From Clostridia bacterium (GTDB lineage Bacteria; Bacillota; Clostridia; RGIG6154), in the NCBI GenBank assembly GCA_045589295.1, contig JAZNOU010000010.1, positions 1 to 62,914 on the forward strand: DNA of 62,914 bases, in the 5' to 3' direction. Every line of letters begins with the position of its first letter. Position 1 is the first letter of the stretch. The translations under genes were made by a program, and so were the position numbers. Shown here piece by piece: positions 38,275-56,018 of this stretch. Below the pieces are notes generated by a model that did no database searches, had not been told where the DNA came from, and saw only the letters and a list, made by a program, of their open reading frames with translations.

Positions 38275-38307
38275 ATTTTCACCTTTAAAAGAAATTATGC
38301 TTTCTTT

Positions 38308-38334
38308 CACAAAAATATAACCTGCTCATATGAT
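38308..38334 (+). promoter_or_regulatory. Candidate mother-cell (SigK/SigE-type) promoter of cotJABC
   Basis: AC (38309-38310), 16 nt spacer, CATATGAT (38327-38334), matching AC-N16-CATANNNT. Confidence 0.5.
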
Positions 38335-38379
38335 GAAATTGAAGATATTTTCTTCAGTTTATGTGAAAGGACTTTTTTT

Positions 38380-38565
38380 ATGACTAATAATTGTATGCCC
38401 GGCGGTAACTGGTCCGACGTTAAGCGTCCGCTTGCGCAGGCCTTTGTTGTAAGACAAGGCGAAGGCGAAGATATGTTTTGCCCGGCGGAAGCTTTGAAAA
38501 AAGGCACTGTTTATCCCGCTCTTTATATGCCATACACTTTCTGGAGGTTTAAAAATGAAGAATAA
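38380..38565 (+). CDS. cotJA: Spore coat protein CotJA
   Basis: PLAQAFV..Q...EALKKGTVYPAL..PY; precedes cotJB. Confidence 0.85.
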   Translation: MTNNCMPGGNWSDVKRPLAQAFVVRQGEGEDMFCPAEALKKGTVYPALYMPYTFWRFKNEE

Positions 38566-38803
38566 TGAAATGCTCTCAAGGCTTATGGCTCTTAATTTTT
38601 CTATGATTGATTTAAACCTTTATCTTGACACACATCCTTGCGATGCGGACACAATAAAAAGATTTAATGAACTGAAAAAGGAATATGAAGATTTAAAATG
38701 TGAATACGAAAAGATTTACGGCACACTTACGCCCGGGACTATCGACAAAGCCGAATGGACATGGCTTTCAGACCCATGGCCGTGGGAAAAAATGTTTTAT
38801 TAA
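38555..38803 (+). CDS. cotJB: Spore coat protein CotJB
   Basis: DLNLYLDTHP, YGTL, WTWLSDPWPWE. Confidence 0.95.
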   Translation: MKNNEMLSRLMALNFSMIDLNLYLDTHPCDADTIKRFNELKKEYEDLKCEYEKIYGTLTPGTIDKAEWTWLSDPWPWEKMFY

Positions 38804-38820: not shown

Positions 38821-39007
38821 ATGTGGATTTATCAGAAAAATCTTGAATACCCGGTCAACATCAAAAGACCTGACCCGAAGATGGCTCAGCTTATCTTATC
38901 ACAGTACGGCGGTCCCGACGGCGAGCTTGGTGCATCGCTTCGTTACCTTTCTCAGCGATATTCAATGCCTACCAAAGAGGCAAAAGGTCTTTTAACCGAT
39001 ATTGGTA
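38821..39007 (+). CDS. cotJC: CotJC (Mn-catalase family), 5' segment, codons 1-62, interrupted by element 1
   Basis: MWIYQKNLEYPV, QYGGPDGELGASLRYLSQRY, LLTDIG; similarity stops at GGTA. Confidence 0.93.
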
Positions 39008-40576
39008 GTTATTATCAAAAATGTTACTCTTTTCCGTAAAAAAAAACTTTCTGTCCTTAATCCCTTTCAGATATACCTCAATATCATTCTTACTATTGAC
39101 AACAATTTGGCCCAAAACTTCTTTAGCAACAGAATCATCAAACTCTTCAAAATTAACAAGTTTGTTCACTACAGCACATATTTCCTTTATCAGCTCATCT
39201 TTGTTTTCAACGACAGTATTTTTATCTCTCTCCTGTTTAATTTCCTCGGTCAGTCTATCAATCTCTTCCTGATACTGCTCCTTTAATTTTACAAACTCAT
39301 CTTTCGTTATTTCGTTATCATAATAGGAGTCAATAATTTTTAGTTTTTTAGAGTCAAGTCTTGCAATATTTCTTTCAGCTTTTTCAAAATCGTAACTCTC
39401 TTTTTTCTTGTTTTTTAAAGCATCTGTTATTACTTTTGTAAGTTTATCAACTATCCTTTTTTTATTGGTTGAAACCTCATTCAATGCTTGTAATACCGCA
39501 CATTCTAAAATTTCATTACCAATATCTTTGTTAGTACAACCAATCATTTCTCCGTTAACCTCATGTTGTACTCCATTTTTAAACTTATTATAGCAACCCC
39601 AAATCTTTCTCTTTGTCCCATTATTACGTTTTTTGAAACGTGCTACATATCTTCTTCCACATTGTCCACATTTAATTTTACCTGAAAAAGCATATCTGTT
39701 TGAATGTTTTGACTTAGTTTCTTCGTAGTTTTTCGATTTTCTTTCAAATTCCGCCTGAACAAAATCAAAGGTCTCTCTATCGATAATTGGATCATGATGG
39801 TCTCTTATATAAACCATTTCTTCTTCGCCTCTGTTATACTTTTTCTTATGAGTTAAAAAGTCAGGAGTAATTGTCTTTTTCTGTAATAAATCACCCACAT
39901 ATTTTTCATTTTGTAAGATGGTACGAATGGACTTGTTTGTCCATTCGCTATTACCATTCTTTGTTTTATGTCCTTCTTCTTGCAACTCTTTTGCAATGAT
40001 ATGAATCCCTTTACCCTCTAAATATTTGTTATATATATGACGCACCAGTTTTGCTTCTTCTTCGTTAACAGTTAAAACTCCATCTTTCAAATGATACCCT
40101 AAAATATTACGACCAAATACAACCCCTTTTTCCATTTGCCTTTTTTGTCCCCATCTGACACGTTCAGAAGTTTTTCGGCTTTCTTCTTGAGCAATACTTG
40201 CCATTATTGTCAAACGCAATTCACCATCGCTGTCAAGTGTGTCAATATTATCATTGAGAAACAAAACACCAACACCTATTGACTTTAATTCTCGTGTGTA
40301 TTGAAGTGTATCAACTGTATTACGTGCAAATCTTGAAACCTCTTTTGTGATAATTTTATCAACCTTTCCATTTTTGGCATCTTTCAGCATCCTGTTAAAA
40401 TGTACACGTTTGTCAGTATTTGTTCCACTAATTCCTTTATCTGCGTATATATCAACTAATTCCCATTCTTTATTTTCATTAATTTTCTGTTCAAAATATA
40501 ATTTCTGACTTTCAAACGAATTTGCCTGGTCGTCCTTATCGGTTGACACTCTGCAATATGCTGCAACTCTTAACAT
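38969..40576 (-). CDS. Large serine recombinase of element 1; ORF crosses the left att site
   Basis: AAYCRVST catalytic Ser, SRFARN, AQEESRKTSERV, Zn ribbon CGQCG, coiled coil. Confidence 0.95.
   Translation of the reverse strand: MLRVAAYCRVSTDKDDQANSFESQKLYFEQKINENKEWELVDIYADKGISGTNTDKRVHFNRMLKDAKNGKVDKIITKEVSRFARNTVDTLQYTRELKSIGVGVLFLNDNIDTLDSDGELRLTIMASIAQEESRKTSERVRWGQKRQMEKGVVFGRNILGYHLKDGVLTVNEEEAKLVRHIYNKYLEGKGIHIIAKELQEEGHKTKNGNSEWTNKSIRTILQNEKYVGDLLQKKTITPDFLTHKKKYNRGEEEMVYIRDHHDPIIDRETFDFVQAEFERKSKNYEETKSKHSNRYAFSGKIKCGQCGRRYVARFKKRNNGTKRKIWGCYNKFKNGVQHEVNGEMIGCTNKDIGNEILECAVLQALNEVSTNKKRIVDKLTKVITDALKNKKKESYDFEKAERNIARLDSKKLKIIDSYYDNEITKDEFVKLKEQYQEEIDRLTEEIKQERDKNTVVENKDELIKEICAVVNKLVNFEEFDDSVAKEVLGQIVVNSKNDIEVYLKGIKDRKFFFTEKSNIFDNNYQYRLKDLLPLW
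39004..39022. other. Left att junction of element 1
   Basis: Core GGTA 39004-39007; arm TATTATCAAAAAT 39010-39022. Confidence 0.85.
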
Positions 40577-40704
40577 TCGTATACCTCACTTTCCATTTTT
40601 CTAACACATTCAAGTAATTCTTCCTCGGTCAATAATTCTCGTTCTTTAAGTGCTTTTAAAACGCCTATCATTAGTAATGTGTCAAAGTTGTTCTCATTTC
40701 CCAT
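40570..40704 (-). CDS. 44-aa SHOCT-like small protein overlapping the recombinase start (candidate directionality factor); not in ORF track
   Basis: MGNENNFDTLLMIGVLKALKERELLTEEELLECVRKMESEVYEC, RBS AGGTGA; stop overlaps recombinase ATG. Confidence 0.7.
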   Translation of the reverse strand: MGNENNFDTLLMIGVLKALKERELLTEEELLECVRKMESEVYEC

Positions 40705-40962
40705 TACACATCACCTGATAAAATGTGCGAATATAAACATTGAAATTATATACTATTCCGCACATAAAGTACACAGTTTTTCTATAACTGTCCTTGTAAA
40801 TGTTTATGAATTTGAGAACTTGACCTATAACATAAAACGTATCATATACGTAAGAAATTAACAAAACAAACAACTCCAAGCATAAGATATTAAACCTACT
40901 CCTTGCGAAGTTATGCCTCTAAATCTGTATGATTAGTTGTTTGTTAAGTGATTTAGGGATTT

Positions 40963-40993
40963 AATAGGGTGGGCGGCTTAAACCCACCCTATT
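40963..40993. terminator. Terminator downstream of the SSB-like gene
   Basis: AATAGGGTGGG...CCCACCCTATT. Confidence 0.75.
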
Positions 40994-41006
40994 TTATAAG
41001 AATACA

Positions 41007-41540
41007 TTATTCTTTAAAGTCATCTTGAGGTGATGACATATACTTACGAGGGTCAAACCTATCTTTCAGTAATTGAATGTTGTGCAGTCGGCAACTAATC
41101 CCTTTACACCCTTTAACATTAAACGGATGAAAACTAATGCTAACTCGTCCATACTGACCATTATATACATCTGTAAATAAAACATCTTCATTTTTATGAT
41201 TAACTACTCCAGGCTTGTAAACCGATGACGCATTTAAAAAATAGCTATTGGAATACATAATGTCGTCAGATGATTCATCGCCATTTCTTAATGGTAATTT
41301 TAGTGTTGCATAGTCAACATCTTCCCCAAATTTATTTTTTCCGTTTTCTATAGCATTGTTTATGGCAGTTTTTATTTTTTTAATAGTTTCAATATCTTCT
41401 TTGGGAATAATAACAATTGTACTGTATTTAGGTTCTGAATTATCATATAAAACCTTAGGGCAAAACAAATTTGCTCGATTTAATATTATACGTCCAGTTA
41501 CCACTTTTTCTATAACGTTTTCATTCAATAGATTTTCCAT
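41007..41540 (-). CDS. Phage-type ssDNA-binding protein (DUF2815-like)
   Basis: EPKYS..IIPK.D, LPLRNGD, YFLNASS, YNGQYGR, GISCRLHNIQ, acidic DDF tail. Confidence 0.8.
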   Translation of the reverse strand: MENLLNENVIEKVVTGRIILNRANLFCPKVLYDNSEPKYSTIVIIPKEDIETIKKIKTAINNAIENGKNKFGEDVDYATLKLPLRNGDESSDDIMYSNSYFLNASSVYKPGVVNHKNEDVLFTDVYNGQYGRVSISFHPFNVKGCKGISCRLHNIQLLKDRFDPRKYMSSPQDDFKE

Positions 41541-41570
41541 AATATTTTACTCCTTATTTAAATATAAATT

Positions 41571-42998
41571 TTACTGTACAAAATGTACAAAATGAACAGA
41601 ATTCAATTCATATATAGTTGATTTACGACCAACTGTATTTAAACTTATACTGTCTTTGACTCGAATATATCCGTGTTCTGCTAACAAATTAAGGGTTTCA
41701 CTAATATCTTCGGTCTTTTTAAAATACCGACTTCTGCATAAAAGATAAATTTCTCTCTTGCTAATTTCATTTACATTAATACTTTCAAGTTTTCTTAAGA
41801 CATATTTAGCCTTTATCACAGATTCACTTGCTCCCATAATGGAAAATGCCATTTTAGCGTGTTCTATAAAATATATCGCTATTTCGCAAGCATTTTCCAT
41901 TATGGTTTTATTAATAATTGAATTACCTACGCCATTGTTTTCTATACAATGTAAGATGCCAGCAATACGAATGGTAGTTCCATGAAGTTTACTTGCCCAA
42001 TCTCTAATATCATTAAATTCATTGATTAATTGAGGTTCAATCCAATCGAAGAAACTCTTACATATTTTGTTTGCCTCGTCAGAAAGACTCAGATTATTAA
42101 CACCTTCAATATTAAGCAAATTGACAAGTCGAGCATTGAATTCTGTTAATATCATATGGTTTAGTGCCGGGGTATCATAAGCCCTTTTACCCATAAAAGA
42201 AATCGGTTTACAATATAAAAATCGCCCTAAAAACCCTTGTCCTCTTAAATCACCATTACTCATAATCCCCTCTAAAACACTTTCTTGTGCCATTAAAAGA
42301 ATAGTCAGCAAAGCATTTTCTATAAATTCTGGTTCTCTACTCTTTCTGTCAACACGAATTGTATCTCCAGTATAAGATTTTAAAAGAGTTTCAAAAGAGC
42401 TTTTATTACTATATCTACCAGTAATATTATTGAACATACCACCTTCTGATGAAATAACAGACATTTTACCGTTGTTTTGTGCCATAAGAGTAGTCAATGC
42501 TTCGATTGTAAAATCATCTGATGTTAACCTCATTAGTTGAGTTTTATTTTTTGATAACTCATCAATTTTTAATTGAATTTTTATAACTCTCTCATAATCT
42601 TCTTCGTTCTCAAATTCTTCTTGCTTTTTCTGTAATTGTTTAATCTTAATTTCATCTTCCAATATTTTTTTCTTACGTTCAACATTTACAGTCTTTTCAT
42701 ACTCATATAATGGAGCTGATAAAATTTTCAACAATGGACTTTTTCTTTCGCCAGGTTCAGCTATAATTAACACATACAAATTAGTTGATTCTTTATAATC
42801 AGGTTTAACTTGTATAAAAACCTTCCCCTGAAGACATACAGATATTATTGCTAATTCTGCCAAGACAGCCATTTCAATCGGTACTGCTAAATTATCCGAT
42901 ATATTTTCTACATAGTCTCGCAATAATTGAGGTAATGTGTGTAATGGAAATGGCGGTGTATCAAACGATTCAAATGGTTTAATTGGGTTCCAGTCCAA
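41571..42998 (-). CDS. YfjI/DUF3987 family replication-associated P-loop protein
   Basis: NLYVLIIAEPGERKSP, TIEAL, SSEGG, RVDRKSR, GFLGRFLY; TTG start after GGGGGTG. Confidence 0.8.
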   Translation of the reverse strand: MDWNPIKPFESFDTPPFPLHTLPQLLRDYVENISDNLAVPIEMAVLAELAIISVCLQGKVFIQVKPDYKESTNLYVLIIAEPGERKSPLLKILSAPLYEYEKTVNVERKKKILEDEIKIKQLQKKQEEFENEEDYERVIKIQLKIDELSKNKTQLMRLTSDDFTIEALTTLMAQNNGKMSVISSEGGMFNNITGRYSNKSSFETLLKSYTGDTIRVDRKSREPEFIENALLTILLMAQESVLEGIMSNGDLRGQGFLGRFLYCKPISFMGKRAYDTPALNHMILTEFNARLVNLLNIEGVNNLSLSDEANKICKSFFDWIEPQLINEFNDIRDWASKLHGTTIRIAGILHCIENNGVGNSIINKTIMENACEIAIYFIEHAKMAFSIMGASESVIKAKYVLRKLESINVNEISKREIYLLCRSRYFKKTEDISETLNLLAEHGYIRVKDSISLNTVGRKSTIYELNSVHFVHFVQ

Positions 42999-43044
42999 AA
43001 CTAAACACCCCCTTTCATTTTGTTCAAATTGTACATTTTGTACA
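41575..43044. repeat. 28-bp inverted repeats (3 x 9-bp units) flanking the DUF3987 gene
   Basis: 41575-41602 TGTACAAAATGTACAAAATGAACAGAAT vs 43017-43044 ATTTTGTTCAAATTGTACATTTTGTACA (25/28 as reverse complement). Confidence 0.8.
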
Positions 43045-43114
43045 TACATTAACGCGTCCGTTAGAAATATTTGAACTTGTATTTTGTCCGTCTGTACAAA
43101 CTTTGCATTTCTGC

Positions 43115-43143
43115 TTGACAACATCCAAAGTGTAACATATAAT
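43115..43143 (+). promoter_or_regulatory. Consensus SigA promoter for the XRE regulator
   Basis: TTGACA-17-TATAAT. Confidence 0.8.
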
Positions 43144-43206
43144 AAGTTATGTGTAAATAAACTCGTACTTATGATTTTAAAATATTTTTAGATTTGAGGT
43201 TAAGTT

Positions 43207-44022
43207 ATGATTAACAATTATTCAGAAAAACAATTAGCTGATATTATTAAAGATACAAGATTGAATATGAAAAAACATACCCAAGATAACATGGCAGAAC
43301 AGTTAGAACTTTCAAGCAGACAAGCCTATGCTAACATAGAAAACGGAGAGTCTAAAATTCAGTTAAAGCACATTATCAAGTTGTGTGAAATTTTTGAATG
43401 TGATATAGGATATTTATTTGGTGAATATCCTACAAAAAGACGAGTATCTTCAGATGTTCAAGAAGTTACAGGGTTAAGTGAAACATCAATAGAGTATCTC
43501 CTTGAAGCTAAAAAAGAATATGATTCTGCAAAACTCGAATATGATAAAGCAGATAATAATGATGACAAATTATCTGCTGAAAACAAATTCTTAGTATCAG
43601 GGATAAAACTGCAAACATTAAACTTTATTCTTGAAAACGATGAAACGTATGGTCTATTGGATTTAATAGGGAGATATTTATTTGGAATGCCTATTTTTCG
43701 TAATGATATTGACGAAACTGCTGAATTGTATACGGATATATCTGAAGCCGATTTCGAAAAGCTTGAAATTACAGACTATTTACAAAAATGTCCTATAAAT
43801 TATTTGTATCAATTTGACGTGAAAAGCAAAACAACCTTTCCAATTTTAGACTTTATATCAACAGATGAAATATATGCTTCACTCCTTGTTCAGTTAAATA
43901 ATAAACTGTCAGAAATAGGCAATAAATTTCGTGAAGATAATCAAAAAAATTTCAAAGAGGCTCTTAATAAGTATTTGAAAGAAAATTACCCAGATGATGT
44001 GATTAATCAAATTTTGGATTAG
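43207..44022 (+). CDS. XRE-family HTH regulator with uncharacterised C-terminal domain
   Basis: TQDNMAEQL..SRQAYANIENG..LCEIFECDIGYLFG; VTGLSE.SI. Confidence 0.8.
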   Translation: MINNYSEKQLADIIKDTRLNMKKHTQDNMAEQLELSSRQAYANIENGESKIQLKHIIKLCEIFECDIGYLFGEYPTKRRVSSDVQEVTGLSETSIEYLLEAKKEYDSAKLEYDKADNNDDKLSAENKFLVSGIKLQTLNFILENDETYGLLDLIGRYLFGMPIFRNDIDETAELYTDISEADFEKLEITDYLQKCPINYLYQFDVKSKTTFPILDFISTDEIYASLLVQLNNKLSEIGNKFREDNQKNFKEALNKYLKENYPDDVINQILD

Positions 44023-44134
44023 TCTCTTTCTATTCTCAAAACAACATAATCCATTCTCAAATCACTTTAATTTAGACACCAATATAAATTCATTAAAATT
44101 TATGTATTAAGTGTTAAAATGGCGATTTAAACAC

Positions 44135-44168
44135 AAAAAGCTACGGAGTAAAAATTCCGTAGCTTTTT
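44135..44168. terminator. Bidirectional terminator
   Basis: AAAAAGCTACGGA...TCCGTAGCTTTTT. Confidence 0.8.
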
Positions 44169-44171
44169 AAA

Positions 44172-44420
44172 TTATGCTAAACATCTCTGAATTATAAAAC
44201 ATAATACTAAAATTATAACCGTTACCCACCAAGGGATTATTTCTTCTAATCCTCCGCCTGAACTTCCATTTTCAACAATGACTTTTTCTTTGCCATCCCC
44301 AAAAGCATTGTCCCTTGATGAGTTTTTAATTGTATAACTTTTTCCATCATTGGTAGTAAATATTTGTTCTTTACCACCACCGAAAGCATTATCTCTTGAA
44401 CTATTTCTTATTCTTGCCAT
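44172..44420 (-). CDS. Small membrane-anchored protein with two NSSxDNAFGxGK repeats (paralog A)
   Basis: RBS AAGGAG; repeated motif; C-terminal PWW plus TM helix. Confidence 0.75.
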   Translation of the reverse strand: MARIRNSSRDNAFGGGKEQIFTTNDGKSYTIKNSSRDNAFGDGKEKVIVENGSSGGGLEEIIPWWVTVIILVLCFIIQRCLA

Positions 44421-44435
44421 AATAACAACTCCTTA

Positions 44436-44750
44436 TCAACTAAACAGGTTAGGAATAAAGAATAATACTTTTCCTACAAATCCCCAAAACTCACCAGGAA
44501 ACACAAAACACACTACCATAATTATTATAACGAGTAATAGACACCCCCACCAAGGTAGTGCATCTACTATCATTTCGGCTAATCCACCACTTGAGCCTTT
44601 TTCCTCAACAATCTTTTGTTTACCACTACCATAAACATTATCAACAGAAGAATTTTTAATAATGTATTCCTTTCCGCTATCATCGGTAAAGATTTGTTGT
44701 TTCCCACCACCATATGCATTATCGACCGAACTGTTTCTTATTTTTGCCAT
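44436..44750 (-). CDS. Small membrane-anchored protein with two NSSVDNxYGxGK repeats (paralog B)
   Basis: RBS AAGGAG; same architecture as paralog A. Confidence 0.75.
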   Translation of the reverse strand: MAKIRNSSVDNAYGGGKQQIFTDDSGKEYIIKNSSVDNVYGSGKQKIVEEKGSSGGLAEMIVDALPWWGCLLLVIIIMVVCFVFPGEFWGFVGKVLFFIPNLFS

Positions 44751-44779
44751 ACGTAACAACTCCTTCTGTATATTATAAA

Positions 44780-45376
44780 TCAAGTTCTTTTAATTTCTTC
44801 AGAAGAATAGGTTAGCTCATTCTTGCTTTTTTCTATACATTCAAGAATATGTGTAATCTCTTCTTTTGTAATGTGGTCAAGTTCGATTAAAGAGTCATCT
44901 GTTTCTAATTTTTTTGTATAAAGAAACCATTGAATAGCAAACCATATATCGTTCTCATTTAAATTGTCAAATCCCTTTATATATACCGGATGACTCAAAA
45001 TTTGCTCTAAAATAAGATAGCATATTTCATATTCAAATGTACCACTTATAACCTTTTTGAAAGGTGGATTAAATAAATTTATAGTTGACTCTTTATAATG
45101 AGACAAAAAGTCCTTATAAATATATTTTTCCAATTCATCACATTGGATAGCTCCAGGCCAAAAACAACCAACCCAATCGTCAATATCATATGTAATCCAT
45201 TCTTCAAAAGTCATTCCGTTTTTTCTGTAATTAATATCAAATTCTACACAACGAGTTTTGTAGAACTCTTTAAGTAGTTGATATTTTTCTTCTAAAGATA
45301 ATTCTGAATCATCAATGACATAAATGGCGTCTCTTACAGATTTTAGTTTTATTTGTTCTCTGATTTTATTAATCAA
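44780..45376 (-). CDS. Hypothetical protein
   Basis: 198-aa ORF, start overlaps upstream stop. Confidence 0.6.
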   Translation of the reverse strand: MINKIREQIKLKSVRDAIYVIDDSELSLEEKYQLLKEFYKTRCVEFDINYRKNGMTFEEWITYDIDDWVGCFWPGAIQCDELEKYIYKDFLSHYKESTINLFNPPFKKVISGTFEYEICYLILEQILSHPVYIKGFDNLNENDIWFAIQWFLYTKKLETDDSLIELDHITKEEITHILECIEKSKNELTYSSEEIKRT

Positions 45377-46392
45377 TTTTTGTTCCCCTTATTTATAAAT
45401 TCCCTTTTTAGCTTATCAAATTTTAATGATGATTTGCTTTTATAGAATTTATCATTTGCACTTACAAATTCCCATAATTGTTTTCCCTTTTCTTCATCAC
45501 CATTTAAATATTTACTAATAATTTGTAATGGTTTATCCCGCTCTGATAATTCATCTTCTGAAATTTTTGCTTTGTATAAAGATGAAATCTTTGGAATACA
45601 TTCATATTCCCGAAATACACTATTATGTTTTATTGCTCCTATATGTATTTCATCTTGATTATCAATATATAGCCCTTGTAGGCAACAACAATCCCTATTA
45701 TCCCCAATCTCAACAACTAAAACCTTTCTTAATTCAGCAAAAGGTCGGCAATCAATAGTTAATATATCTCCAACCTTAAAAGATGTTGGGAGGTTTAAAT
45801 CTTCATTATGTGAACAAACATCAAGTTTTTTTATCACTTGTGATTTGTTTGGATTTTTTTTGTATTTCTTTTTGTAATCATAATCAAACTTATAAAACCA
45901 AATATCACCTTTTAACGAAATGTAGTAATCAATGATTTTTTCATAAATACCTAATTCAGATAAGGTCCATTTTTCTAAAACAAACCAATCACATAATTCT
46001 TCAAATGTATTATATTCGAATAGCTGACAACAACTTTCCTTAATATATTCAATTACTTTTTCACTATTGTTAAATGGGAAACATTCATATATTTTTGGTG
46101 AAATCTCGCTATCATTTAAATTATCTGCATCGATTCCTTGTCCTTTAAGAATATAAATTTCACTTTCTTTTAATTCTAACTGAGATAAAGCATTGTTTAT
46201 TGCTTTATAACTATTTTTATATATTTCATCTGTTTCTTTCAGTTCCTCTAAAATTAACAACTTATCTTCTAGAGATATTCGTGCACCACAAATTATATTG
46301 TTAATTTGGGATAATGATAAATCATCAAAATTTTCATCAAGATAATTTTTCATTTCATCTGATTGAAATAAATCTAAAATTTTGTCTTTCAT
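45373..46392 (-). CDS. Hypothetical protein
   Basis: 339-aa ORF, RBS AAAGG; GDILTIDCRPF, GDNRDCCC. Confidence 0.65.
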   Translation of the reverse strand: MKDKILDLFQSDEMKNYLDENFDDLSLSQINNIICGARISLEDKLLILEELKETDEIYKNSYKAINNALSQLELKESEIYILKGQGIDADNLNDSEISPKIYECFPFNNSEKVIEYIKESCCQLFEYNTFEELCDWFVLEKWTLSELGIYEKIIDYYISLKGDIWFYKFDYDYKKKYKKNPNKSQVIKKLDVCSHNEDLNLPTSFKVGDILTIDCRPFAELRKVLVVEIGDNRDCCCLQGLYIDNQDEIHIGAIKHNSVFREYECIPKISSLYKAKISEDELSERDKPLQIISKYLNGDEEKGKQLWEFVSANDKFYKSKSSLKFDKLKREFINKGNKN

Positions 46393-46444
46393 AATATCAA
46401 CCTTTCATTCAAAATTAAGTAGCAGATAATGTTAAATAAAACTA

Positions 46445-46648
46445 TTAATCATATTTACTGCTACACAAAAATACTTTCATTTGTGCACTATACTTATCTG
46501 TTGAAAATGCTTTTATTACACCACTTTCATATTTGTTGTTTGTAGGCCATACCTTAACAACTCCATTTTCGTACTTGTTATCAGTAACATATACTTTAAC
46601 TACTCCTGATTCATATTTATTATCTACAAAATATATTGGTGTTGCCAT
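46445..46648 (-). CDS. Small tandem-repeat protein (DUF6150-like, ~14-aa KYE repeats)
   Basis: DNKYESGVVKVYVT / DNKYENGVVKVWPT / NNKYESGVIKAFST; RBS AAGGAG. Confidence 0.65.
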   Translation of the reverse strand: MATPIYFVDNKYESGVVKVYVTDNKYENGVVKVWPTNNKYESGVIKAFSTDKYSAQMKVFLCSSKYD

Positions 46649-46844
46649 TAAAATCACTCCTTATGAATTGCCTATTATCTGCTACTGTAAAATTTTGAAC
46701 TCTTTAACAAAGTATATTGTAACATACCTCTCAACTTTTTGCAACTATATTTTAACTTAATATTTAACTGCAATAATAAGTATATGAATAAATGCTGAAA
46801 TCATTTAAAATAATAATATAAATTGTAATGTAGAGGTGATAACA

Positions 46845-47018
46845 ATGGATTTTATAATAAAAAAACCAACAAGCTCAAATAGAACTATCAGAATGCCTGA
46901 TACACTTATTGAGCAAATCAGTCAAATTGCCACCGAACAAGAAATTTCTTTTAATCAGGTAGTTATTCAATGTTGTGAATTTGCTATTGACAATCTTCCT
47001 AAAAAGGATAAAAAGTAG
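46845..47018 (+). CDS. Ribbon-helix-helix DNA-binding protein
   Basis: NRTIRMP..LIEQI..IA....SFNQVVIQCCEFA; RBS GAGGTG. Confidence 0.75.
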   Translation: MDFIIKKPTSSNRTIRMPDTLIEQISQIATEQEISFNQVVIQCCEFAIDNLPKKDKK

Positions 47019-47519
47019 CCTAACCAACTTCTTCTATGTATAGTTTCTCGATTTAAATATAAACCATAATTTAAAAAATGTACACCGTTTTTCTCAAGCG
47101 TTGTACATTTTTGTTTTATTATCATTAACTAAATACTTGACTTGAAATTAATCTCAAATGTGTTATAATAATTACATATTCAGAAGGGGATTTATATGAT
47201 GGAATAAAAAAACGAATAATACAATAACATAATAAAAAGAAATATTGACATTTTATGATAAATGTGGTAACATTCCTTATACGATTTTCTGTTTTCATTT
47301 TTAACCAAATCAAAATTATTTTATTATGCACTAATGTTTAAATGTTAGACAAGCTTATTATATTGTCTTGATTGTTTAACGAGCAATTATTTTTTGTTGG
47401 GTTTGATGGATTGAAATTGTAGAACAATTAATTATTGAATTATAAAATCATTTGTTGCAACAATTTAATATTTTAAATAGCTATTTAAATTACAGTACGA
47501 ATTAAAAAGGAGAATGGCT

Positions 47520-47672
47520 ATGTTAAGATTAAGCATTGAAGGAATTATCGTAATATCTATTGTAAGAATCCTTAGTTTGGTCTTAAAATACATTTTTAAT
47601 ATTATTATAGTTTTTTTAGCTCACAAATATAGAATAGACATTAAAAGCAAAAATTTTTCTGTAAAACATTAA
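47520..47672 (+). CDS. 50-aa hydrophobic peptide with basic tail (type I toxin-like); not in ORF track
   Basis: RBS AAGGAG; MLRLSIEGIIVISIVRILSLVLKYIFNIIIVFLAHKYRIDIKSKNFSVKH; hairpin AGGGATAG...CTATCCCT-TTTTT at ~47688-47718. Confidence 0.55.
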   Translation: MLRLSIEGIIVISIVRILSLVLKYIFNIIIVFLAHKYRIDIKSKNFSVKH

Positions 47673-47847
47673 TTCTAAAAATTTATCAGGGATAGTTCAT
47701 TAGAGCTATCCCTTTTTTCTAAAAAGGATTTATCATTACTCATGAAATGGCCCATTACGTTATACATATATTGCATTTTATGTATATTTCTAATATAATA
47801 ATGTCAGAGAAATAAAAAATAGTATATTATGGAGAAACATTTATTAT

Positions 47848-49212
47848 ATGAAAGATTCAAAATTCATACGAGAAATAAAATTATTAATTAATTTCGTGCG
47901 CTCATACGGAATTCATCATCTTGATTATTATGTAGATGTTAATTCATTATCACCAATTAAAACTGACAAACAAAATGAAATTATTAAAAAAATACATAAT
48001 GGTTTCTTTTTGGCACAAGAGAATGTTATAAGATTATTAACTAAAGTTTTAATGGAGCAAAAGGAATTAAAGAAGGAGTTAAAAGAAAGTCGACGAAATC
48101 GTGACGAAATAGCAATTAAAGAATATGAAAACAAACTTAACAAAGTTAAATATCAAGAATGCACATTACGAAAAATAATGGATTCCATCGCGTGGCAGAT
48201 TTTTCGTTATGATTTATCAAGTATTCGCAGATTATATAATGGTAATACTTGTATTGATATAACTGATTCAAATATAGTATCTGAAATTGAATATATAAAT
48301 TCCCATAGAGAACATAATCCTGTCGATTTTGTATTAATTAACGATTTAACATCATTCCTTCAAGTTGGAGATATAACAATAGTTAGCAAAGATAAAAAAA
48401 TTCAAATAGTTGAAATGAAAAGAGGAAAAGTTAACAATGAAATATTAAATATTATCAACGATTTTTCAACAAATCCGTGTCCCAGAAAATTATATTATAC
48501 ACTTGAAAATAAAGATAAAAAATTTATGGAACAATTAAAGCGAGATTTAAAACAAATGCAGAATGCCATTAATGTTGATAATATATTTAAAAAAGGGGAA
48601 GGAATTGATAATGTCCTTGGGAAAAATGTGAAAATTATTCAAGAAGAAATAGAGCTTAATACATTTGATAGAGAATTGTTAAATTTAATTGAGAAGTGTA
48701 AAAAGAATAATTATGCTATATCTATTATAGAAGATTGTCTATTTATTGGGGTGTACAATACAAATAAATTTCCGAGTAATATATTTGATGCTTGGGTGAA
48801 CCCTTTAAAAATTAAAACTCCTATTTTTGATTTGAGACAATCATTAACTATACCTTTAGCCTATCCATTATTTTTACATCCTTTTTCAGATAATATATTA
48901 GCTGATATAGTATCCGGGGATATTGTTATTAAAATGACTATGAATATTGAAGCATTACTTAAGAAAATCGAAAGCAAAGGATTGAAAATAAGATGGCTTT
49001 CCAAAAGAGAAACGGCAAGAATAAACACTCAGCTTAAAGGAGCTAACCATTTATTTATGATGGATGGATGTGGAATATCTATTGAAAATGATGATAATAG
49101 TTATTTTTTATTTGATGGTTTATTGTTAAGAATATTCAGTAGTTTCAATATCCCCTCTGCTATCGTTGAATATATTCTTGCTACATTTAATTATATTGAT
49201 AACGACAATTAA
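47848..49212 (+). CDS. Hypothetical 454-aa protein with possible PD-(D/E)XK nuclease motif
   Basis: NDLTSFLQVGDITIV...IQIVEMKRG; very AT-rich; own terminator-like IR downstream. Confidence 0.6.
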   Translation: MKDSKFIREIKLLINFVRSYGIHHLDYYVDVNSLSPIKTDKQNEIIKKIHNGFFLAQENVIRLLTKVLMEQKELKKELKESRRNRDEIAIKEYENKLNKVKYQECTLRKIMDSIAWQIFRYDLSSIRRLYNGNTCIDITDSNIVSEIEYINSHREHNPVDFVLINDLTSFLQVGDITIVSKDKKIQIVEMKRGKVNNEILNIINDFSTNPCPRKLYYTLENKDKKFMEQLKRDLKQMQNAINVDNIFKKGEGIDNVLGKNVKIIQEEIELNTFDRELLNLIEKCKKNNYAISIIEDCLFIGVYNTNKFPSNIFDAWVNPLKIKTPIFDLRQSLTIPLAYPLFLHPFSDNILADIVSGDIVIKMTMNIEALLKKIESKGLKIRWLSKRETARINTQLKGANHLFMMDGCGISIENDDNSYFLFDGLLLRIFSSFNIPSAIVEYILATFNYIDNDN

Positions 49213-49344
49213 TCTAAACAAACAAAAAGAATCGTTCTGTTTTTAATAACAAAATGATTCTTTTTGATTATACACTAACATATCTGCTATGATGCTGACT
49301 ATAAAAGAAATGTAGCCAAAATATCTTCTATACGTTATTTTCTT

Positions 49345-49920
49345 TCATAAATTTACTGCATTGTAACAATCAATAATCACTTTTTGAGTAATACCTATGT
49401 ATCTTAATGTAATTGCACTCGATGAATGATTTAAGAGTTTTTGAAGTGTTTCTAATGGTACCTTATTAATGTATCTGTGATATGCCATAGTCTTTCTCAA
49501 TGTATGTGTACCGAAATTACCTTTAATCCCTAAATCATTTGTAAGTGTTTTAATGATATGATGCAGAGGTCTTACTCCTAAATGACTACCTTTTCGACTT
49601 TTAAATAGGAAATCCTCCATATCATAGTGTGCTAAAGAGTTAAGATATATCCGTATCGCATCTTTAGCATTTTTATTTAATGCGAAATTCCTTGTTTTTC
49701 CCGTTTTCTGTTCTTTGATAGTTACTGTATCAAATATTATATTTCCGTCTGTAACATCTTTAATTTTTAATGATAATAAATCTCCTGCTCTTAATCCAAC
49801 ATTGATTCCCACAACAAATATACAGTAATCTCTCTTGTTTTCTTTTCCGTATAAATATTGCTTGATTTTGTTAATATCTCTTGTGTTTTTAATTGGTTCA
49901 ACCTCTTTGGGTAATGTCAT
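49345..49920 (-). CDS. Short tyrosine recombinase (catalytic domain only)
   Basis: GLRAGDLL, KTGK, HTLRKT, LNHSS..IT.RYIG. Confidence 0.92.
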   Translation of the reverse strand: MTLPKEVEPIKNTRDINKIKQYLYGKENKRDYCIFVVGINVGLRAGDLLSLKIKDVTDGNIIFDTVTIKEQKTGKTRNFALNKNAKDAIRIYLNSLAHYDMEDFLFKSRKGSHLGVRPLHHIIKTLTNDLGIKGNFGTHTLRKTMAYHRYINKVPLETLQKLLNHSSSAITLRYIGITQKVIIDCYNAVNL

Positions 49921-50011
49921 ATGTTTAATCTCCTTTTTCAATTGTAACTTAATTTTTTACAATTATATATCGCGTGTGTGAAAAAGTACACCGTTTTTCA
50001 CATAAACAAAA

Positions 50012-50159
50012 AATATTACCTTTTGCCCATTTAATGAACATAAGGTAATATTCAAAACTTGTTTTTATTAAATTTTAAATCTCATATTTCCCGAAACCAT
50101 TACAAGAGTTAAGTTTGAAAGATTTTTAGCAATATTACCTATTGATAAAAGGTAATATT
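50012..50159. repeat. Two inverted pairs of AATATTACCT (candidate recombinase-binding sites)
   Basis: 50012-50022 / 50042-50052 and 50131-50140 / 50150-50159. Confidence 0.75.
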
Positions 50160-50201
50160 ATAGTATAATATAACTACATTAAACCGAAAAAGGAGAAACA
50201 A

Positions 50202-50750
50202 ATGACTAAAAAGATAATTAAAGAAACCCCGTTTGGCTACAAAACCTCAAAAGAATTTTTTAACAGAATAATTACTCCAAAATTCATTAAACTTACTAAT
50301 CACAATATTGATTCCGACTTATTCGAGCTATACTATGACTTCATTTTTGCTGCAGGTGCATTAAGAGATTGGATTATCAATGAATTTCATTTGACATCTT
50401 CGCAAATAGCCAAATACTTTTTTGAAGATAAATACTTTAATATTTTACAATCAATATATAACAATACAAAACACTATGAATTGGACACTGGCAAAAGGAA
50501 ATATGATGTTCTATTAGATGGTAAGTCTCTATTCAATGCAGACGAAAATGGAGATTGCTATTGGGATGATAATGCGATATGGGATGATGAAGCTCTTTGG
50601 GCGGATAGAATTGAAGGCGAAAGTGGAAATTTCAACTATATCTGCACAGTCGTTGAAAACAAAACAGATAACATAGAAAGTATATATTTATTTGAAATTT
50701 GCAAACAAGTTTATTATAATTATAAATCAATAATAACCAATTTAGAATAA
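50202..50750 (+). CDS. Hypothetical protein, possible HEPN-like
   Basis: RBS AAGGAG; F..A..LRDWI...YNNTKH; promoter TTGATA-16-TATAAT at 50142-50169. Confidence 0.6.
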   Translation: MTKKIIKETPFGYKTSKEFFNRIITPKFIKLTNHNIDSDLFELYYDFIFAAGALRDWIINEFHLTSSQIAKYFFEDKYFNILQSIYNNTKHYELDTGKRKYDVLLDGKSLFNADENGDCYWDDNAIWDDEALWADRIEGESGNFNYICTVVENKTDNIESIYLFEICKQVYYNYKSIITNLE

Positions 50751-51083
50751 TATCTCCAAAGATTCAACCATTGATTTCCCTACTTATTATCCACATATCT
50801 ATTTTAACAAATACGCTACCAGAATTTTAAAAACACATAATTAATTCTAACTGATACTTCACGACATCTTTTGGAGTTTTTTTAAATCGCTTAAAATGTT
50901 TTGGAATTAATTAGAATTACATAGACTTATTTAAAAAAATATTTTTTGCTTGTCCGAGTTTTGTTTTTAAAAATTTTTTATATCCATTTTGCTTGCTTTT
51001 TTATTTCGTTTATTTTGCAAAAATAACTCTTGCATTTTTATTCATTTTGTGATATACTGTATTTTGTAAGGAAGGTGTTATAT

Positions 51084-51458
51084 ATGTCTAACTATACATT
51101 CGATTTTAATTTTGTAAAATCTGGCGCCCCTATTGTAACTATAAGTTCACTTGGTCTTTCGTTCAATAGAATTTCTCGTACACTTTTAAAATTCCCATCC
51201 AAGATTAACGTTGGTTTTGACGAAAATGCTCGAGTTATTGGCATTAAAGCTCATGATGAAAACTCAAGTGTTGCCAACTATGAATTTGAAAGTCGTGTGA
51301 AAAATGAATGGATACGCATTGGATGTAAAGATTTCATCAAATACTTATCGAGTATAACAAAAATAGATTTTACAACTGCAAAACAATTTATTGCTGAATA
51401 TGACGACTTATTAAAAATGCTTATTGTTGTCGTTGATGAAGACCATATTAAAAAATAA
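51084..51458 (+). CDS. Hypothetical protein
   Basis: RBS AAGGAAGG; 124 aa; upstream TTGCAT...TATACT. Confidence 0.65.
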   Translation: MSNYTFDFNFVKSGAPIVTISSLGLSFNRISRTLLKFPSKINVGFDENARVIGIKAHDENSSVANYEFESRVKNEWIRIGCKDFIKYLSSITKIDFTTAKQFIAEYDDLLKMLIVVVDEDHIKK

Positions 51459-51487
51459 TACAATAAAAAGAAAAAAGATAGTGTGTA

Positions 51488-51672
51488 ATATGTATGTGCG
51501 AAATACATATCCTCACTATCTCCCAGCTTGACAAAGCAATCACCAAAGGTGAGTACAATATCAAATTCAACGTATATATTATACCACCTTTGGATCCAAA
51601 TTGCAATACCCTTTTGTCAAGAATATGAAAGGAGTTGCTCTGGGTCTTTTTATTGTTTTATATAAAACAATA
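51488..51672. ncRNA. Structured leader with candidate antisense RNA
   Basis: Long hairpin 51527-51621; minus-strand TTGCAA-17-TATAAT inside it; hairpin 51488-51510; 22-bp palindrome 51651-51672. Confidence 0.5.
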
Positions 51673-51692
51673 GAGTAAGGAGGTTTAAAAAA

Positions 51693-51812
51693 ATGGCTAA
51701 AACCAAAAGCAGTGTACGTGGAGTCCAAAACAAAAAAATTGTTGTGGTTAAAGGTTACACTAAGAAAAATGGTGTTAAAGTTGACGGTTATAGACGTTCT
51801 ACACCAAACTAA
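51693..51812 (+). CDS. 39-aa basic peptide; not in ORF track
   Basis: RBS AAGGAGG; MAKTKSSVRGVQNKKIVVVKGYTKKNGVKVDGYRRSTPN; downstream hairpin AGGGTTG/CAACCCT. Confidence 0.7.
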   Translation: MAKTKSSVRGVQNKKIVVVKGYTKKNGVKVDGYRRSTPN

Positions 51813-51884
51813 CAGTTTAGAATTAACAGAAGGGTTGCTTAAACAACCCTCTAAACTTACAAGAGATAAAAATTTAATTTAAGG

Positions 51885-52850
51885 ATGGTGTTTTTTATTA
51901 AGAGAGGAAAAAACTATTTAAATATCCCTCAAATCACTTTAGAGGAAATTAAAACAACCAAAACAAATTATATACAGCTTGGGTGCGTGTTAAAAGCTTC
52001 TAAAAATGACATTAAAAACGGTTGTTACAAAGATTTATCAATAGAAATAAAAAATGGAAATGTAAAATATATCGATAGTATACTCCCTCCAACATACAAT
52101 GGCAGATATTCTTCATACAACCAAAAAGGAAGAAGTATAATCAGAAGAAACTTGCCTAAAGTAACAAAGTGGTTTTCTCACGATATATACCCTTATGGAG
52201 ATACATCAAGAAATACTGTTTTAGCAACATACTCACGAAAAGTATGGCAAAGAGAAGAATGGCTTCCTGAGTTTTTAACATTTAGTGTCTCTTTAAAACA
52301 AGAAGATTCAGAATTTTGTTACTTTATCATTAAATGTGAAGAAATTATTGACAAAAGGTCTAATGATGCAGAATTCAGAGTTCTTTATAATATTAACTTA
52401 ATATCCGAAAACTGCGGAAATTATCAAATCATAGAAAATGATAAAGATGATGACTACATTTTAAAAACATTATATGTAAACTGGGAACTTCTTCCTCCTG
52501 GGCATATCGAAATCCAAAGTATAACAAGAAATTTCGAAACAAAGTCGCCTCAAGAACAAAAAGAAGTATTAGAAAGATTTGAATATATTAAATCTTTTAA
52601 TCCTAAAAAACTTATAAAAGGTTCAAACAAGTTTTCACAATATTTCGGTGCTATAATGAGCAACGACGTAGTTGTACTTGAAAATACCCATGTCGGAAAT
52701 GCAATTTATGTATTTTACAATGATTGGGAGATTTTATCCAAACTCAGCCGAACAGAGCTTTTAAGAATGAATTCAAAAAACGTTACAAGAATACGTCACT
52801 CTGGTAATTGGAAAGAGTTGCTAAATAAAACAATAAACAACAAAGAATAA
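51885..52850 (+). CDS. Hypothetical protein (mobile-element cargo)
   Basis: 321-aa ORF; VNWELLPPG, YFGA, LEN..GNAIYVF...W..LSKLSRTELL, RIRH. Confidence 0.7.
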   Translation: MVFFIKRGKNYLNIPQITLEEIKTTKTNYIQLGCVLKASKNDIKNGCYKDLSIEIKNGNVKYIDSILPPTYNGRYSSYNQKGRSIIRRNLPKVTKWFSHDIYPYGDTSRNTVLATYSRKVWQREEWLPEFLTFSVSLKQEDSEFCYFIIKCEEIIDKRSNDAEFRVLYNINLISENCGNYQIIENDKDDDYILKTLYVNWELLPPGHIEIQSITRNFETKSPQEQKEVLERFEYIKSFNPKKLIKGSNKFSQYFGAIMSNDVVVLENTHVGNAIYVFYNDWEILSKLSRTELLRMNSKNVTRIRHSGNWKELLNKTINNKE

Positions 52851-52858
52851 GTATTTAG

Positions 52859-52887
52859 AAATCAGGGGTCAAAACGACCTCTGATTT
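52859..52887. terminator. Bidirectional terminator; lies just after the alternative recombinase stop codon
   Basis: AAATCAGGGGTC-aaaac-GACCTCTGATTT. Confidence 0.75.
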
Positions 52888-52897
52888 TGTATAAACA

Positions 52898-53014
52898 TTA
52901 AATTGCAACATATACTGTAACTTTTACATTATTATACAAGTCTCTATGATAACTCCCTAAACGTGAGGAATTTATACTCTCCAAAACGGAATACCTATTT
53001 TGGATAATAGGTAG
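52898..53014 (-). other. Orphan 38-codon segment that becomes the recombinase C-terminus after excision
   Basis: LPIIQNRYSVLESINSSRLGSYHRDLYNNVKVTVYVAI*, in frame with the recombinase when the GGTA cores are joined. Confidence 0.7.
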
Positions 53015-53017
53015 GTA
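52992..53017. other. Right att junction of element 1
   Basis: Arm ATTTTGGATAATA 52997-53009, core GGTA 53014-53017; extra IR TACCTATT/AATAGGTA. Confidence 0.85.
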
Positions 53018-53391
53018 CAGAAGAACTTGCTCACATGGAGATCGTTGCAACAATTGTTCGCCAGCTTTTAAAGGGAAGCGGAAGAGAACAGATTGCAGAC
53101 GAATACAGTCCGATGTATATTGACCACGGCCTTGGAATCTATCCTGCATCTGCTGCCGGCGTTCCTTACACTGCCGCCTCAATGCAGGTTAAGGGCGATC
53201 CTATCACCGATATAGCAGAGGATATGGGTGCAGAACAAAAAGCACGCTCAACTTATGAATATATTTTAGATATGGCTGACGATCCTGATGTCATCGACCC
53301 TATCAAATTCCTAAGAGAACGTGAAATTGTTCACTTCCAGCGCTTTGGTGAACCAATCCATACTAATTTAAGGAGATTTTTCCCATACTAA
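53014..53391 (+). CDS. cotJC: CotJC central segment; family similarity ends at QRFGE (~53352), then a 12-aa atypical tail
   Basis: GTEELAHMEIV, AAGVPYTA, KGDPITDIAEDMGAEQKARSTY, FLREREIVHFQRFGE. Confidence 0.92.
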   Translation, partial: GTEELAHMEIVATIVRQLLKGSGREQIADEYSPMYIDHGLGIYPASAAGVPYTAASMQVKGDPITDIAEDMGAEQKARSTYEYILDMADDPDVIDPIKFLREREIVHFQRFGEPIHTNLRRFFPY

Positions 53392-53424
53392 AAGACACCG
53401 CAACCGATTGAGTTGCAGTGTCTT
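53392..53424. terminator. Hairpin terminator between cotJC segment and recombinase 2
   Basis: AAGACACCGCAAC-cgattga-GTTGCAGTGTCTT. Confidence 0.7.
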
Positions 53425-53473
53425 ATTTTGTTTGTTAAAGTATATCATATTACTAATAAAAAAGCAATACCTT

Positions 53474-55000: not shown

Positions 55001-55052
55001 AACTACACCCCTTTCTGTAAGCGGAGCGGATGTTTCCGCTCCACTCCCTTAA

Positions 55053-55229
55053 TCAGCCTGCTTTATGCGTGAAAATCCTGTAGAGTTCCTCTACGATTTG
55101 TTCTTCAAGTTCCTTTCGCTGTTCAGCGTTAAAAACAACGCTGTGCTTAACTTCTTTGATTTTATTTGATATATCAGTATAATTTGTATGGTATCCTGTG
55201 TTAATTGTTGTTGCAACTGCTTGTAGCAT
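55053..55229 (-). CDS. 58-aa protein upstream of recombinase 2 (candidate directionality factor)
   Basis: RBS GGAGG; EEQIVEELYRIF; hairpin GGAGCGGA/TCCGCTCC between it and the recombinase. Confidence 0.65.
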   Translation of the reverse strand: MLQAVATTINTGYHTNYTDISNKIKEVKHSVVFNAEQRKELEEQIVEELYRIFTHKAG

Positions 55230-55299
55230 AGTATCGACCTCCGATTTTTCTTGTTCGATAATAAGCATATTATCTTAACACGGACACACGAAGTTCCGC

Positions 55300-55983: not shown

Positions 55984-56018
55984 ATCACATCCCTCCTTGT
56001 TTGGTATGGCGGTAGCGG

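Follow-up and report, generated by a model that had tools for sequence, protein, structure and literature searches.

A spore-coat gene in three pieces: two unrelated integrative elements inside cotJC of a likely spore-forming Clostridia bacterium

The cotJ operon and its two interruptions

We analysed a stretch of 62,914 nucleotides from an uncultured gut Clostridia bacterium (GenBank assembly GCA_045589295.1, contig JAZNOU010000010.1; here called the window), which makes up the whole of contig C10 of a bin of 1.54 Mb (22 contigs, 97% complete). It contains the cotJABC operon of a likely spore-former, in which two integrative elements that are unrelated to each other divide the spore-coat gene cotJC into three parts. 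The operon is read on the forward strand and comprises: cotJA (38215..38565 as the longest open reading frame (ORF), with a likely ATG at 38382; Pfam CotJA, E=2e-11), cotJB (38555..38803; Pfam CotJB, E=2.2e-27), a first piece of cotJC with codons 1-62 (38821..39007) and a second piece with codons 62-174 (53014..53352); the last codons were found on another contig of the bin. The split gene was recognised as a member of the CotJC family by a PF05067 match, the ExxH ligand helices and the presence of cotJA and cotJB directly upstream. The host encodes the core sporulation proteins Spo0A (333 bits), SpoIVA (751 bits) and SigK (318 bits), its sigK gene is uninterrupted, and no second cotJC was found in the bin. 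Other genomes, contigs and loci are designated below by G, C and L numbers, respectively.

The cotJC frame that opens with the ATG at 38821 loses homology at a GGTA (39004-39007), and homology resumes in the frame that reads GGTA CAGAAGAA... from 53014. These are the positions at which an earlier note, made from the letters of the window, had placed the end of codon 62 and the resumption of the gene, and the Pfam Mn_catalase match is split at the same point (positions 1-63 on the first piece and 63-192 on the second). The two cores (attL1, 39004-39007, and attR1, 53014-53017) are 14,010 bp apart, which is the length of element 1 when one core copy is counted (39004..53013). Joining them by coordinates gives a frame of 186 codons, the length that the note had expected from removal of element 1 alone, and reads ...LLTDIG-TEELAHME... 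across the junction; in three relatives of the same genus cotJC runs through LLTDIG-TEELAH without interruption. The insertion point (DIG|TEELAH, core GGTA; site 1) lies in a metal-ligand helix, and the attP1 arms are inverted over 7 bp (GATAATA/TATTATC). Logan contigs of four sequencing runs (X1-X4, none of which held more than 0.41 of the window words) were compared with the window as well. In contigs of X1 and X2, which stem from two other metagenome studies, position 39003 passes exactly into 53014, with four ambiguous letters (X1: depth 20.6 and, to the left of the junction, 19 differences in 2004 nt; X2: depth 5.4). These contigs hold the attB1 junction that the note had suggested looking for, though they come from strains without element 1. 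The interiors of the elements were near-uncovered in all four runs, which has no bearing on excision. Because the Pfam split, the same-genus relatives and the exact empty-site contigs agree, the first interruption and its borders are certain.

The gene breaks for a second time after codon 174 (HFQRFGE|; attL2 core GGTGAA, 53347-53352; site 2). In 13 genomes of the family the native gene continues with 15 residues of the IMNQLNELKNKKKFY type; in the window FGE is followed instead by PIHTNLRRFFPY and a stop (53353..53391, forward strand), a substitute tail that is encoded by element 2, coincides with the P' arm of attP2 and recurs in five other genomes (G003, G279, G268, G086 and G234). The contigs of all four runs match the window up to 53352 and then continue into native-type tails, so that the break which had been put at about 53352, next to a divergent large serine recombinase (LSR), is exact at this position. 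Element-free relatives with a tail of the xHTNLRR type would have spoken against a second interruption; the five genomes with this tail all carry a homologue of LSR2, the recombinase of element 2. Empty sites 1 and 2 are both present in two further genomes (G001 and G002).

The end of the gene, which had been predicted to lie beyond 62914 after a GGTGAA-like core, was recovered when the bin was scanned in all six frames; it occurs twice, close to where contig C12 begins. At C12:1891 a GGTGAA core is followed by the last 15 cotJC codons, and directly before this core stands TCCTTAAATTACTAAT, the inverted partner of the TAATTTAAGGA that follows the core in the window and thus a matching attR arm; the attP2 arms are inverted over 11 bp (TCCTTAAATTA/TAATTTAAGGA). 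Codon 174 and the 15 tail codons together give a native cotJC of 189 codons.

Element 2 occupies the window from 53353 onwards and runs off the contig after 9.56 kb (53353..62914). Contigs C10 and C12 share no overlap at their facing ends, and the ORF cut at the window end could be ruled out as a continuation of the ORF cut at C12:3-509. The two contigs are linked by synteny with G279, a genome of another family that carries a contiguous element 2 of 13.8 kb at the same cotJC codon (93.2% identical to window positions 53140-62914 and 95.2% identical to C12:1-1896, with 2.3 kb between them). By this comparison element 2 measures about 13.8 kb and consists of the left 9.56 kb, a gap of about 2.3 kb and C12:1-1890; the gap probably stayed unassembled because of a paralogue of 74% identity on contig C18. 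The corresponding region of G279 holds two ORFs (322 and 380 aa). An apparent extension of the 93% identity into the cotJC sequence beside element 2 of G279 was discarded as an artefact of long local alignment, the gene part being far less alike.

Each element thus has its own core, its own attP arms and its own recombinase: LSR1 (38969..40576, reverse strand) in element 1 and LSR2 (53474..55000, reverse strand; 92% identical in G279) in element 2. Resolvase, Recombinase and zinc-ribbon domains score above the cutoffs in both, and the catalytic R9, S11 and other motif residues are invariant in the recombinase alignment. The short shared core, the inverted attP arms and the precise empty site, found for sites 1 and 2 alike, are hallmarks of elements moved by large serine recombinases. 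LSR1 and LSR2 belong to different lineages and share 27% identity, in keeping with the earlier view of two independent elements in one cotJC; the further point that the native protein would need two excisions was borne out in silico, as only both removals restore the 189-codon gene.

Some further observations concern the same loci. The cotJC tail occurs twice at C12:1872-2962 (L024): the first copy (core at 1891) has a genus-type terminator and is followed by a stretch of about 1 kb in which one ORF is barstar-like (1993-2277, reverse strand) and another barnase-like (2287-2574, reverse strand); a further P arm, core and tail of the element-2 type stand at C12:2887-2962. The same arrangement is present in G002, a genome without element 2, and the duplicated tail is therefore an older relic at site 2. 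A Mn_catalase match on C18 was considered as a rejoined cotJC and rejected, as it represents a different, true-catalase-like paralogue (C18:2-466, cut by the contig end). It lies in another recombinase-bearing region of the bin (C18:1-12000), which also carries the C-terminal portion of a large serine recombinase, an incomplete 3' end resembling that of a tRNA and, at C18:10338-11985, the paralogue of 74% identity to the gap in element 2. Finally, a weak AC-N16-CATATGAT was seen by eye about 50 nt 5' of the likely cotJA ATG (in 38290-38381); it resembles the mother-cell sigma consensus, and we draw no claim from it.

Elements at three sites in cotJC across the class

To place the window, 399 genomes sampled from the class were searched with the second cotJC piece (217 with a match; 150 of the 222 matches listed), and 54 loci were fetched: 35 of the listed matches, in which the open frame was short or the ends were odd, and 19 further loci. 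The 54 loci were chosen for looking broken, and the counts given below are therefore floors and not rates. A 3' piece that starts at G|TEELAH marks site 1 in at least 27 other genomes, behind at least five different element arms (one of these genomes, G039, has a whole cotJC upstream as well), and the element-2 tail xHTNLRR marks site 2 in at least five genomes. A third hot spot, site 0, lies before (Y)GGPDGEL at about codon 29-30 and is used in at least nine genomes by elements with their own recombinases (L013, L028, L029, L047, L052, L053, L057, L058 and L060; also G291 and G138). The corresponding 5' pieces of cotJC were found in all five genomes that were searched for them. The size of the elements varies widely: 8.1 kb in G265, 14.7 kb in G268 (at the same codon as element 1) and 157 kb in G056, while two closed genomes are each cut twice (G291, 4.7 and 10.6 kb; G138, 5.6 and 22.7 kb); every element examined encodes its own large serine recombinase.

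The same association was recovered when we started from the recombinases. Relatives of LSR1 (E<=1e-90) are encoded in 55 of the 399 genomes, and in 24 of the best 29 loci a cotJC piece lies within ~400 bp of the 3' end of the recombinase gene (piece 1 in 19 and piece 2 in five); of the five loci without one, three lie at contig ends. Taken together, the site-1 junction is present in at least 38 of the 399 genomes (26 from the cotJC search and 12 from the LSR1 loci). In IMG/VR, 190 stretches encode LSR1 relatives, and 21 of 28 loci have a cotJC piece downstream (at least 42% identity, at least 170 nt downstream). In 15 of the 17 that were read this piece is no more than the ~33 codons that separate site 0 from site 1, with foreign DNA on both sides and, in two cases, a second recombinase beyond it. 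One IMG/VR locus (L141), the sole one with a close LSR1 and no downstream tblastn match to cotJC, was dismissed as a candidate for an excised (attP) form, the element being integrated beside an internally deleted cotJC piece. Relatives of LSR2 (E<=1e-80) occur in 28 of the 399 genomes, and among the 12 closest loci the FGE junction adjoins six and an attR-like tail one more. By these comparisons each recombinase belongs to a lineage that, throughout the class, is found integrated in cotJC at a site of its own, and the recurrence of the same junctions in dozens of genomes excludes chance.

Double interruption is not peculiar to the window. It was found in at least seven other genomes and in 15 viral contigs, and every pairwise combination of the three sites is represented: sites 1 and 2 in G268, by the same two element families as here; sites 0 and 2 in G279; and sites 0 and 1 in G291, G138, G015, G006 and G382. 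G239 is probably doubly interrupted as well, and G382 is a candidate for a triple interruption. When 17 uninterrupted rows were aligned (three being duplicates of the same genes), all three sites coincided with local maxima of nucleotide conservation; among 499 windows site 2 ranks 4th, site 1 42nd and site 0 88th.

Element 2 is 93-95% identical in G279, yet the cotJC pieces of the two genomes are only 58-61% identical, and LSR1 is 79% identical in G268 and G112, which belong to yet another family. A contig of X3 carries a cotJC that is 98.5% identical to that of the window, with a different element arm at site 1. By these identities the elements have been exchanged across families, and different ones compete for the same site.

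A few of the fetched loci show further peculiarities. In G039 (L020, C24) a whole cotJC is followed, ~0.9 kb on, by a second copy of the 3' two-thirds with an identical protein sequence; this copy is preceded by an element-type arm, and the layout resembles that of the duplicated tail on C12. In G358 (L032, C16:63270-64081) an element-free cotJC has one extra base exactly at the site-1 crossover that causes a frameshift; an excision scar and a sequencing error are both conceivable origins. In G268 (L048, C20:1-19999) three copies of the element-2 P' arm lie 3' of cotJC piece 2, ~10.7 and 7.2 kb apart, and such a tandem array would explain the distance of its LSR2 from the junction. Both elements of G291 (L068, G291:C1:480000-497500) carry cellulases (GH5 with CBM17/28 and SLH; GH44 with dockerin), and the 4.7-kb element has little beyond the recombinase and one enzyme gene.

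Genes carried by the two elements

Both elements encode, beside the large serine recombinase, a primase/helicase and regulators. Among the 31 ORFs of the two elements (the ~2.3-kb gap of element 2 being outside the scan) no capsid, tail, terminase or lysis family was found in PHROGs; the matches fell in the categories integration, replication, regulator or no known function only.

In element 1 the LSR1 gene (Pfam Resolvase, Recombinase and Zn_ribbon_recom) spans attL1, so that the final 11 codons are read from cotJC DNA in antisense, and the protein has 535 aa in the integrated state versus 562 aa across the circle junction. The LSR1 homologue of G268 has 548 aa when integrated, and the recombinase ORF of G265 likewise reaches the junction. 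Among solved structures the best full-length match of LSR1 is SprA (PDB 9dxh, E=5e-19); a higher-scoring one (3g13, E=8e-47) is a recombinase domain of 169 aa from a conjugative transposon. The start of LSR1 is overlapped by a 44-codon ORF (40570..40704, reverse strand) without a Pfam match. It is positionally conserved in G268 and G112 and aligns with a looser family of small proteins in 10 loci, and a related small protein precedes many LSR1-type genes; on these grounds it is a positional candidate for the directionality factor of LSR1. The leader and promoter region of this unit (40705..41006, reverse strand), after a hairpin that follows the single-stranded DNA-binding protein gene, is ~79-90% conserved in G268 and G129.

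The following genes encode a single-stranded DNA-binding protein of the Gp2.5/Enc34 type (41007-41540, reverse strand) and a DUF3987 helicase/primase (41571-43124, reverse strand), both with Pfam and PHROGs matches, and an HTH_3 repressor-like protein (43207..44022, forward strand; Pfam, PHROGs) with a perfect sigma-70-type promoter at 43115-43143. A leftward run of ORFs (82, 115, 198, 339, 70 and 68 aa; 44172..47331, reverse strand) had no match at default thresholds in Pfam, PHROGs, PADLOC or NCBIfam; only the 70-aa ORF (46445-46657) matched a family at a looser threshold (Pfam DUF6150, E=1.6e-07, 31.6 bits, cutoff 27). The stretch from 46017 to 50972 holds variable cargo, including a 60-aa ORF of the ribbon-helix-helix type (46836-47018), a 454-aa protein (47848-49212) and a 198-aa tyrosine recombinase (49345-49941; NCBIfam and PHROGs integrase matches). 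Contigs of X3 and X4 have 20 other letters in its place, and in G268 the tyrosine recombinase is 93% and the 60-aa ORF 90% identical, versus 78% for LSR1; the stretch has the look of a module that is nested in element 1 or can be exchanged. Imperfect inverted repeats of 53 nt were noted at 46773 and 50738. Three cargo ORFs of unassigned function (182, 142 and 321 aa; 50202..52850, forward strand) had no reportable family match, and the cargo and small ORFs are mostly without a match in Pfam, NCBIfam, PHROGs and PADLOC.

The motif AAAWGTACA occurs seven times in the window, with 3.0 expected for its whole length, and six of the copies lie in element 1 (40398, 41581, 43030, 47076, 47102 and 49982), promoter regions among them; a variant stands at the LSR1 promoter. 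It is likely to be the operator of an element-encoded repressor, and its clustering in element 1 suggests one repressor regulon.

Element 2 carries, at higher coordinates than LSR2 and all on the reverse strand: a 71-aa ORF, a 240-aa ORF, a D5_N/P-loop primase-helicase (56019-57686) and a 443-aa ORF (together 55053..59277; Pfam, PHROGs), a small serine recombinase of the resolvase/invertase type with HTH_7 (59463..60008; Pfam Resolvase, E=1.6e-43), and a YpsA/SLOG-like protein, a 574-aa protein with an SBP_bac_3 domain and the ORF cut by the contig end (60283..62912; Pfam). The part on C12 adds an excisionase-like helix-turn-helix protein and a PDC-S45/LmuA-like protease.

Excision, its likely timing and known counterparts

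With both elements integrated no CotJC would be made, since the four-helix metal site is split. The native protein of 189 residues would require two separate and precise attL x attR recombinations, each presumably performed by the recombinase of the element itself together with a small directionality factor, for which the 44-codon ORF is the candidate in element 1. The likeliest moment would be in the sporulating mother cell, in which cotJ is expressed, as known from B. subtilis, and of which the chromosome is discarded, so that the spore would keep both elements; with the replication genes that the elements carry, the dying mother cell may double as an exit route. We lean towards such excision in the sporulating mother cell on several grounds. 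The elements sit inside the coding frame of cotJC in a genome with Spo0A, SpoIVA and SigK, as skin does in its target, and their removal in silico leaves intact frames (186 codons with element 1 out, 189 with the C12 tail) that are collinear with uninterrupted relatives. Internal stops are absent from all the interrupted 3' pieces listed. In the pair G089/G056 the flank of the element (88.6% identical) has diverged to about the same degree as the gene piece (90.8%), which shows 26 synonymous versus 6 non-synonymous differences and a ratio of non-synonymous to synonymous rates (dN/dS) of 0.046, which speaks for retained function. The convergence of three unrelated recombinase lineages on one mother-cell coat gene likewise favours developmental timing.

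Several points weigh against this timing. Excision was seen nowhere in the contigs examined for this organism, and the attB1 contigs of X1 and X2 reflect strain polymorphism and not excision, since element 1 is essentially uncovered in those samples; no excised attP form occurred in the fetched loci, the larger collections having had no dedicated scan with junction probes. By eye, no convincing sigma-E or sigma-K promoter was seen 5' of LSR1 or the 44-codon ORF, the LSR1 promoter region carries the AAAWGTACA-type motif, so that control looks to be of the repressor or phage type, and in several relatives sigma-A-like promoters precede the recombinase gene. The dN/dS argument comes down to one pair and assumes that the insertion predates the split of the two genomes; for other interrupted pairs dN/dS is 0.013-0.053, with dS near saturation and insertion dates undefined, so that only G089/G056 is informative. 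Mutants of cotJ in B. subtilis are mild, and a permanently broken cotJC might therefore cost little. In C. difficile, too, CotJC-family mutants are reported to have no marked coat defect (PMC11222575).

Three other explanations were weighed. The elements might be ordinary islands, similar to satellites or integrative mobilisable elements, that have landed in conserved stretches of a gene which is idle during growth; they would excise only upon their own induction (loss of the repressor, or a helper phage), independently of sporulation, and cotJC would be null. This would fit the repressor, the operator-like repeats and the replication modules of the two elements, their recent transfer across families, the position of all three sites on conservation peaks, that of site 2 above all, and the mild mutants. 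It accounts less well for three unrelated recombinase lineages arriving in the same mother-cell gene, for the dN/dS of G089/G056, where the insertion is probably shared, and for the intact pieces in every interrupted genome examined, down to the middle pieces of ~100 bp between two elements; moreover, the sporulation-gene elements tested at the bench so far are all reported to be excised in sporulating cultures. We regard it as a serious possibility, though not the expected one. That the split gene is a mis-assembly or a chimera of the bin, for which one could point to the 22 contigs and to element 2 running off one of them, is highly improbable: the junctions are base-exact with recombinase-type inverted arms, the same junctions are found in dozens of independent genomes including the closed G265, G291 and G138, and cotJC of G268 is divided by the same two elements.

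It is also conceivable that element 1 gates cotJC and element 2 is tolerated, in line with a reservation of the earlier note; if the 186-residue protein ending in PIHTNLRRFFPY is functional, element 2 need not excise. The recognisable Mn-catalase ligand motifs indeed all lie before codon 174 (with the Pfam match reaching position 192), the substitute tail has a basic-aromatic end (RRFFPY) like the native KKKFY, its stop is kept in G279 (PNHTNLRRFYPY), and G003, G086 and G234 have the element-2-type insertion alone. Yet the element-encoded stop is kept in only two of six genomes, and in G003, G268, G086 and G234 the frame continues for at least 14 codons (about 14 to 45), so that selection for a defined end is not apparent; binding of the recombinase to the P' arm explains the conservation of the tail, and the native K-K-x-aromatic end (...KKKFY) is kept in 11 of 13 family genomes. 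We consider this explanation unlikely.

Excision in the mother cell, if it occurs, may be part of a wider scheme, which we put forward tentatively and do not expect to hold in full: cotJC could be a developmental gene with multiple locks, in which three landing sites, each with its own recombinase lineage, would demand up to two or three mother-cell excisions, and the doomed mother cell would serve as a launch pad (excision, replication and release by lysis) while the spore keeps the integrated copy. Intervening elements have been described in a few cultured Bacilli and Clostridia, usually one per gene, and here two recombinations would be needed for one gene. If excision is developmental, a common and unrecognised layer of control would exist in gut spore-formers, together with a route for the spread of genes (the cargo including the cellulases of G291); if it is not, cotJC would be a natural safe harbour. 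Either way, the loci provide many natural pairs of recombinase and att site with known conserved targets, and split cotJC genes should no longer be annotated as pseudogenes.

Judged by its architecture, the case belongs with the recombinase-borne intervening elements of sporulation genes (skin, SPbeta, vfbin, vrin, gin and yin), for which excision during sporulation, or at least dependent on growth phase, has been reported. One close parallel is skin in sigK (SpoIVCA in B. subtilis; in C. difficile skinCd, with CD1231 as well as CD1234 as directionality factor), likewise an LSR element inside the frame of a mother-cell gene, with the recombinase gene adjoining the junction and precise excision restoring the frame; skinCd is also given as ~14 kb (PMC4430133 and PMC4191935). 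The window differs in its target, a coat gene and not a sigma factor (sigK being intact), in having two elements in one gene, and in the replication modules and recent cross-family exchange of these elements; sporulation control of the kind known for skin would here be an analogy. In Bacillus cereus ATCC 10987 the gene gerE harbours gin, a non-prophage element with an LSR and a very small directionality factor: GirC acts with GirX, a 42-aa protein without a known motif whose function was demonstrated at the bench (PMC5595907). The 44-codon ORF that overlaps the start of LSR1 recalls GirX and, unlike it, is a candidate by position only. Sporulation genes are also reconstituted by recombinases in the cases of SPbeta in spsM (SprA/SprB) and yin in yabG of C. 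botulinum. Unlike the elements described here, which lack capsid, tail and terminase matches, SPbeta is a complete phage.

As a target, cotJC is already in print: together with gerE, yaaH and yhbH it is attributed to Abe et al. 2013 in bioRxiv 10.1101/2021.11.22.469490, and a skin-like element in cotJC of Laceyella sacchari is mentioned in bioRxiv 10.1101/2022.02.25.481979. These reports share with ours the interruption of cotJC by phage- or transposon-related skin-like elements, and differ in that, in their readable parts, single insertions are mentioned in passing; their tables may hold more. A doubly cut sporulation gene, three cotJC hot spots and dedicated recombinase lineages were not found in the searchable literature, supplementary tables being outside the search, and Durrant 2022 mentions neither catalase nor spore.

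A more distant parallel is offered by the heterocyst elements (in nifD, fdxN and hupL; XisF), where a terminally differentiated cell also removes recombinase-borne elements from genes that it needs, in a different phylum, cell type and set of genes. Several elements in one gene are known among them, and a multiply locked cotJC, if real, would be the Firmicute counterpart of the multiply interrupted heterocyst nif genes. LSR2 matches the NCBIfam XisF model (E=1.7e-44); at 152.6 bits versus a cutoff of 375 its score is far too low for an equivalog, and this assignment was rejected.

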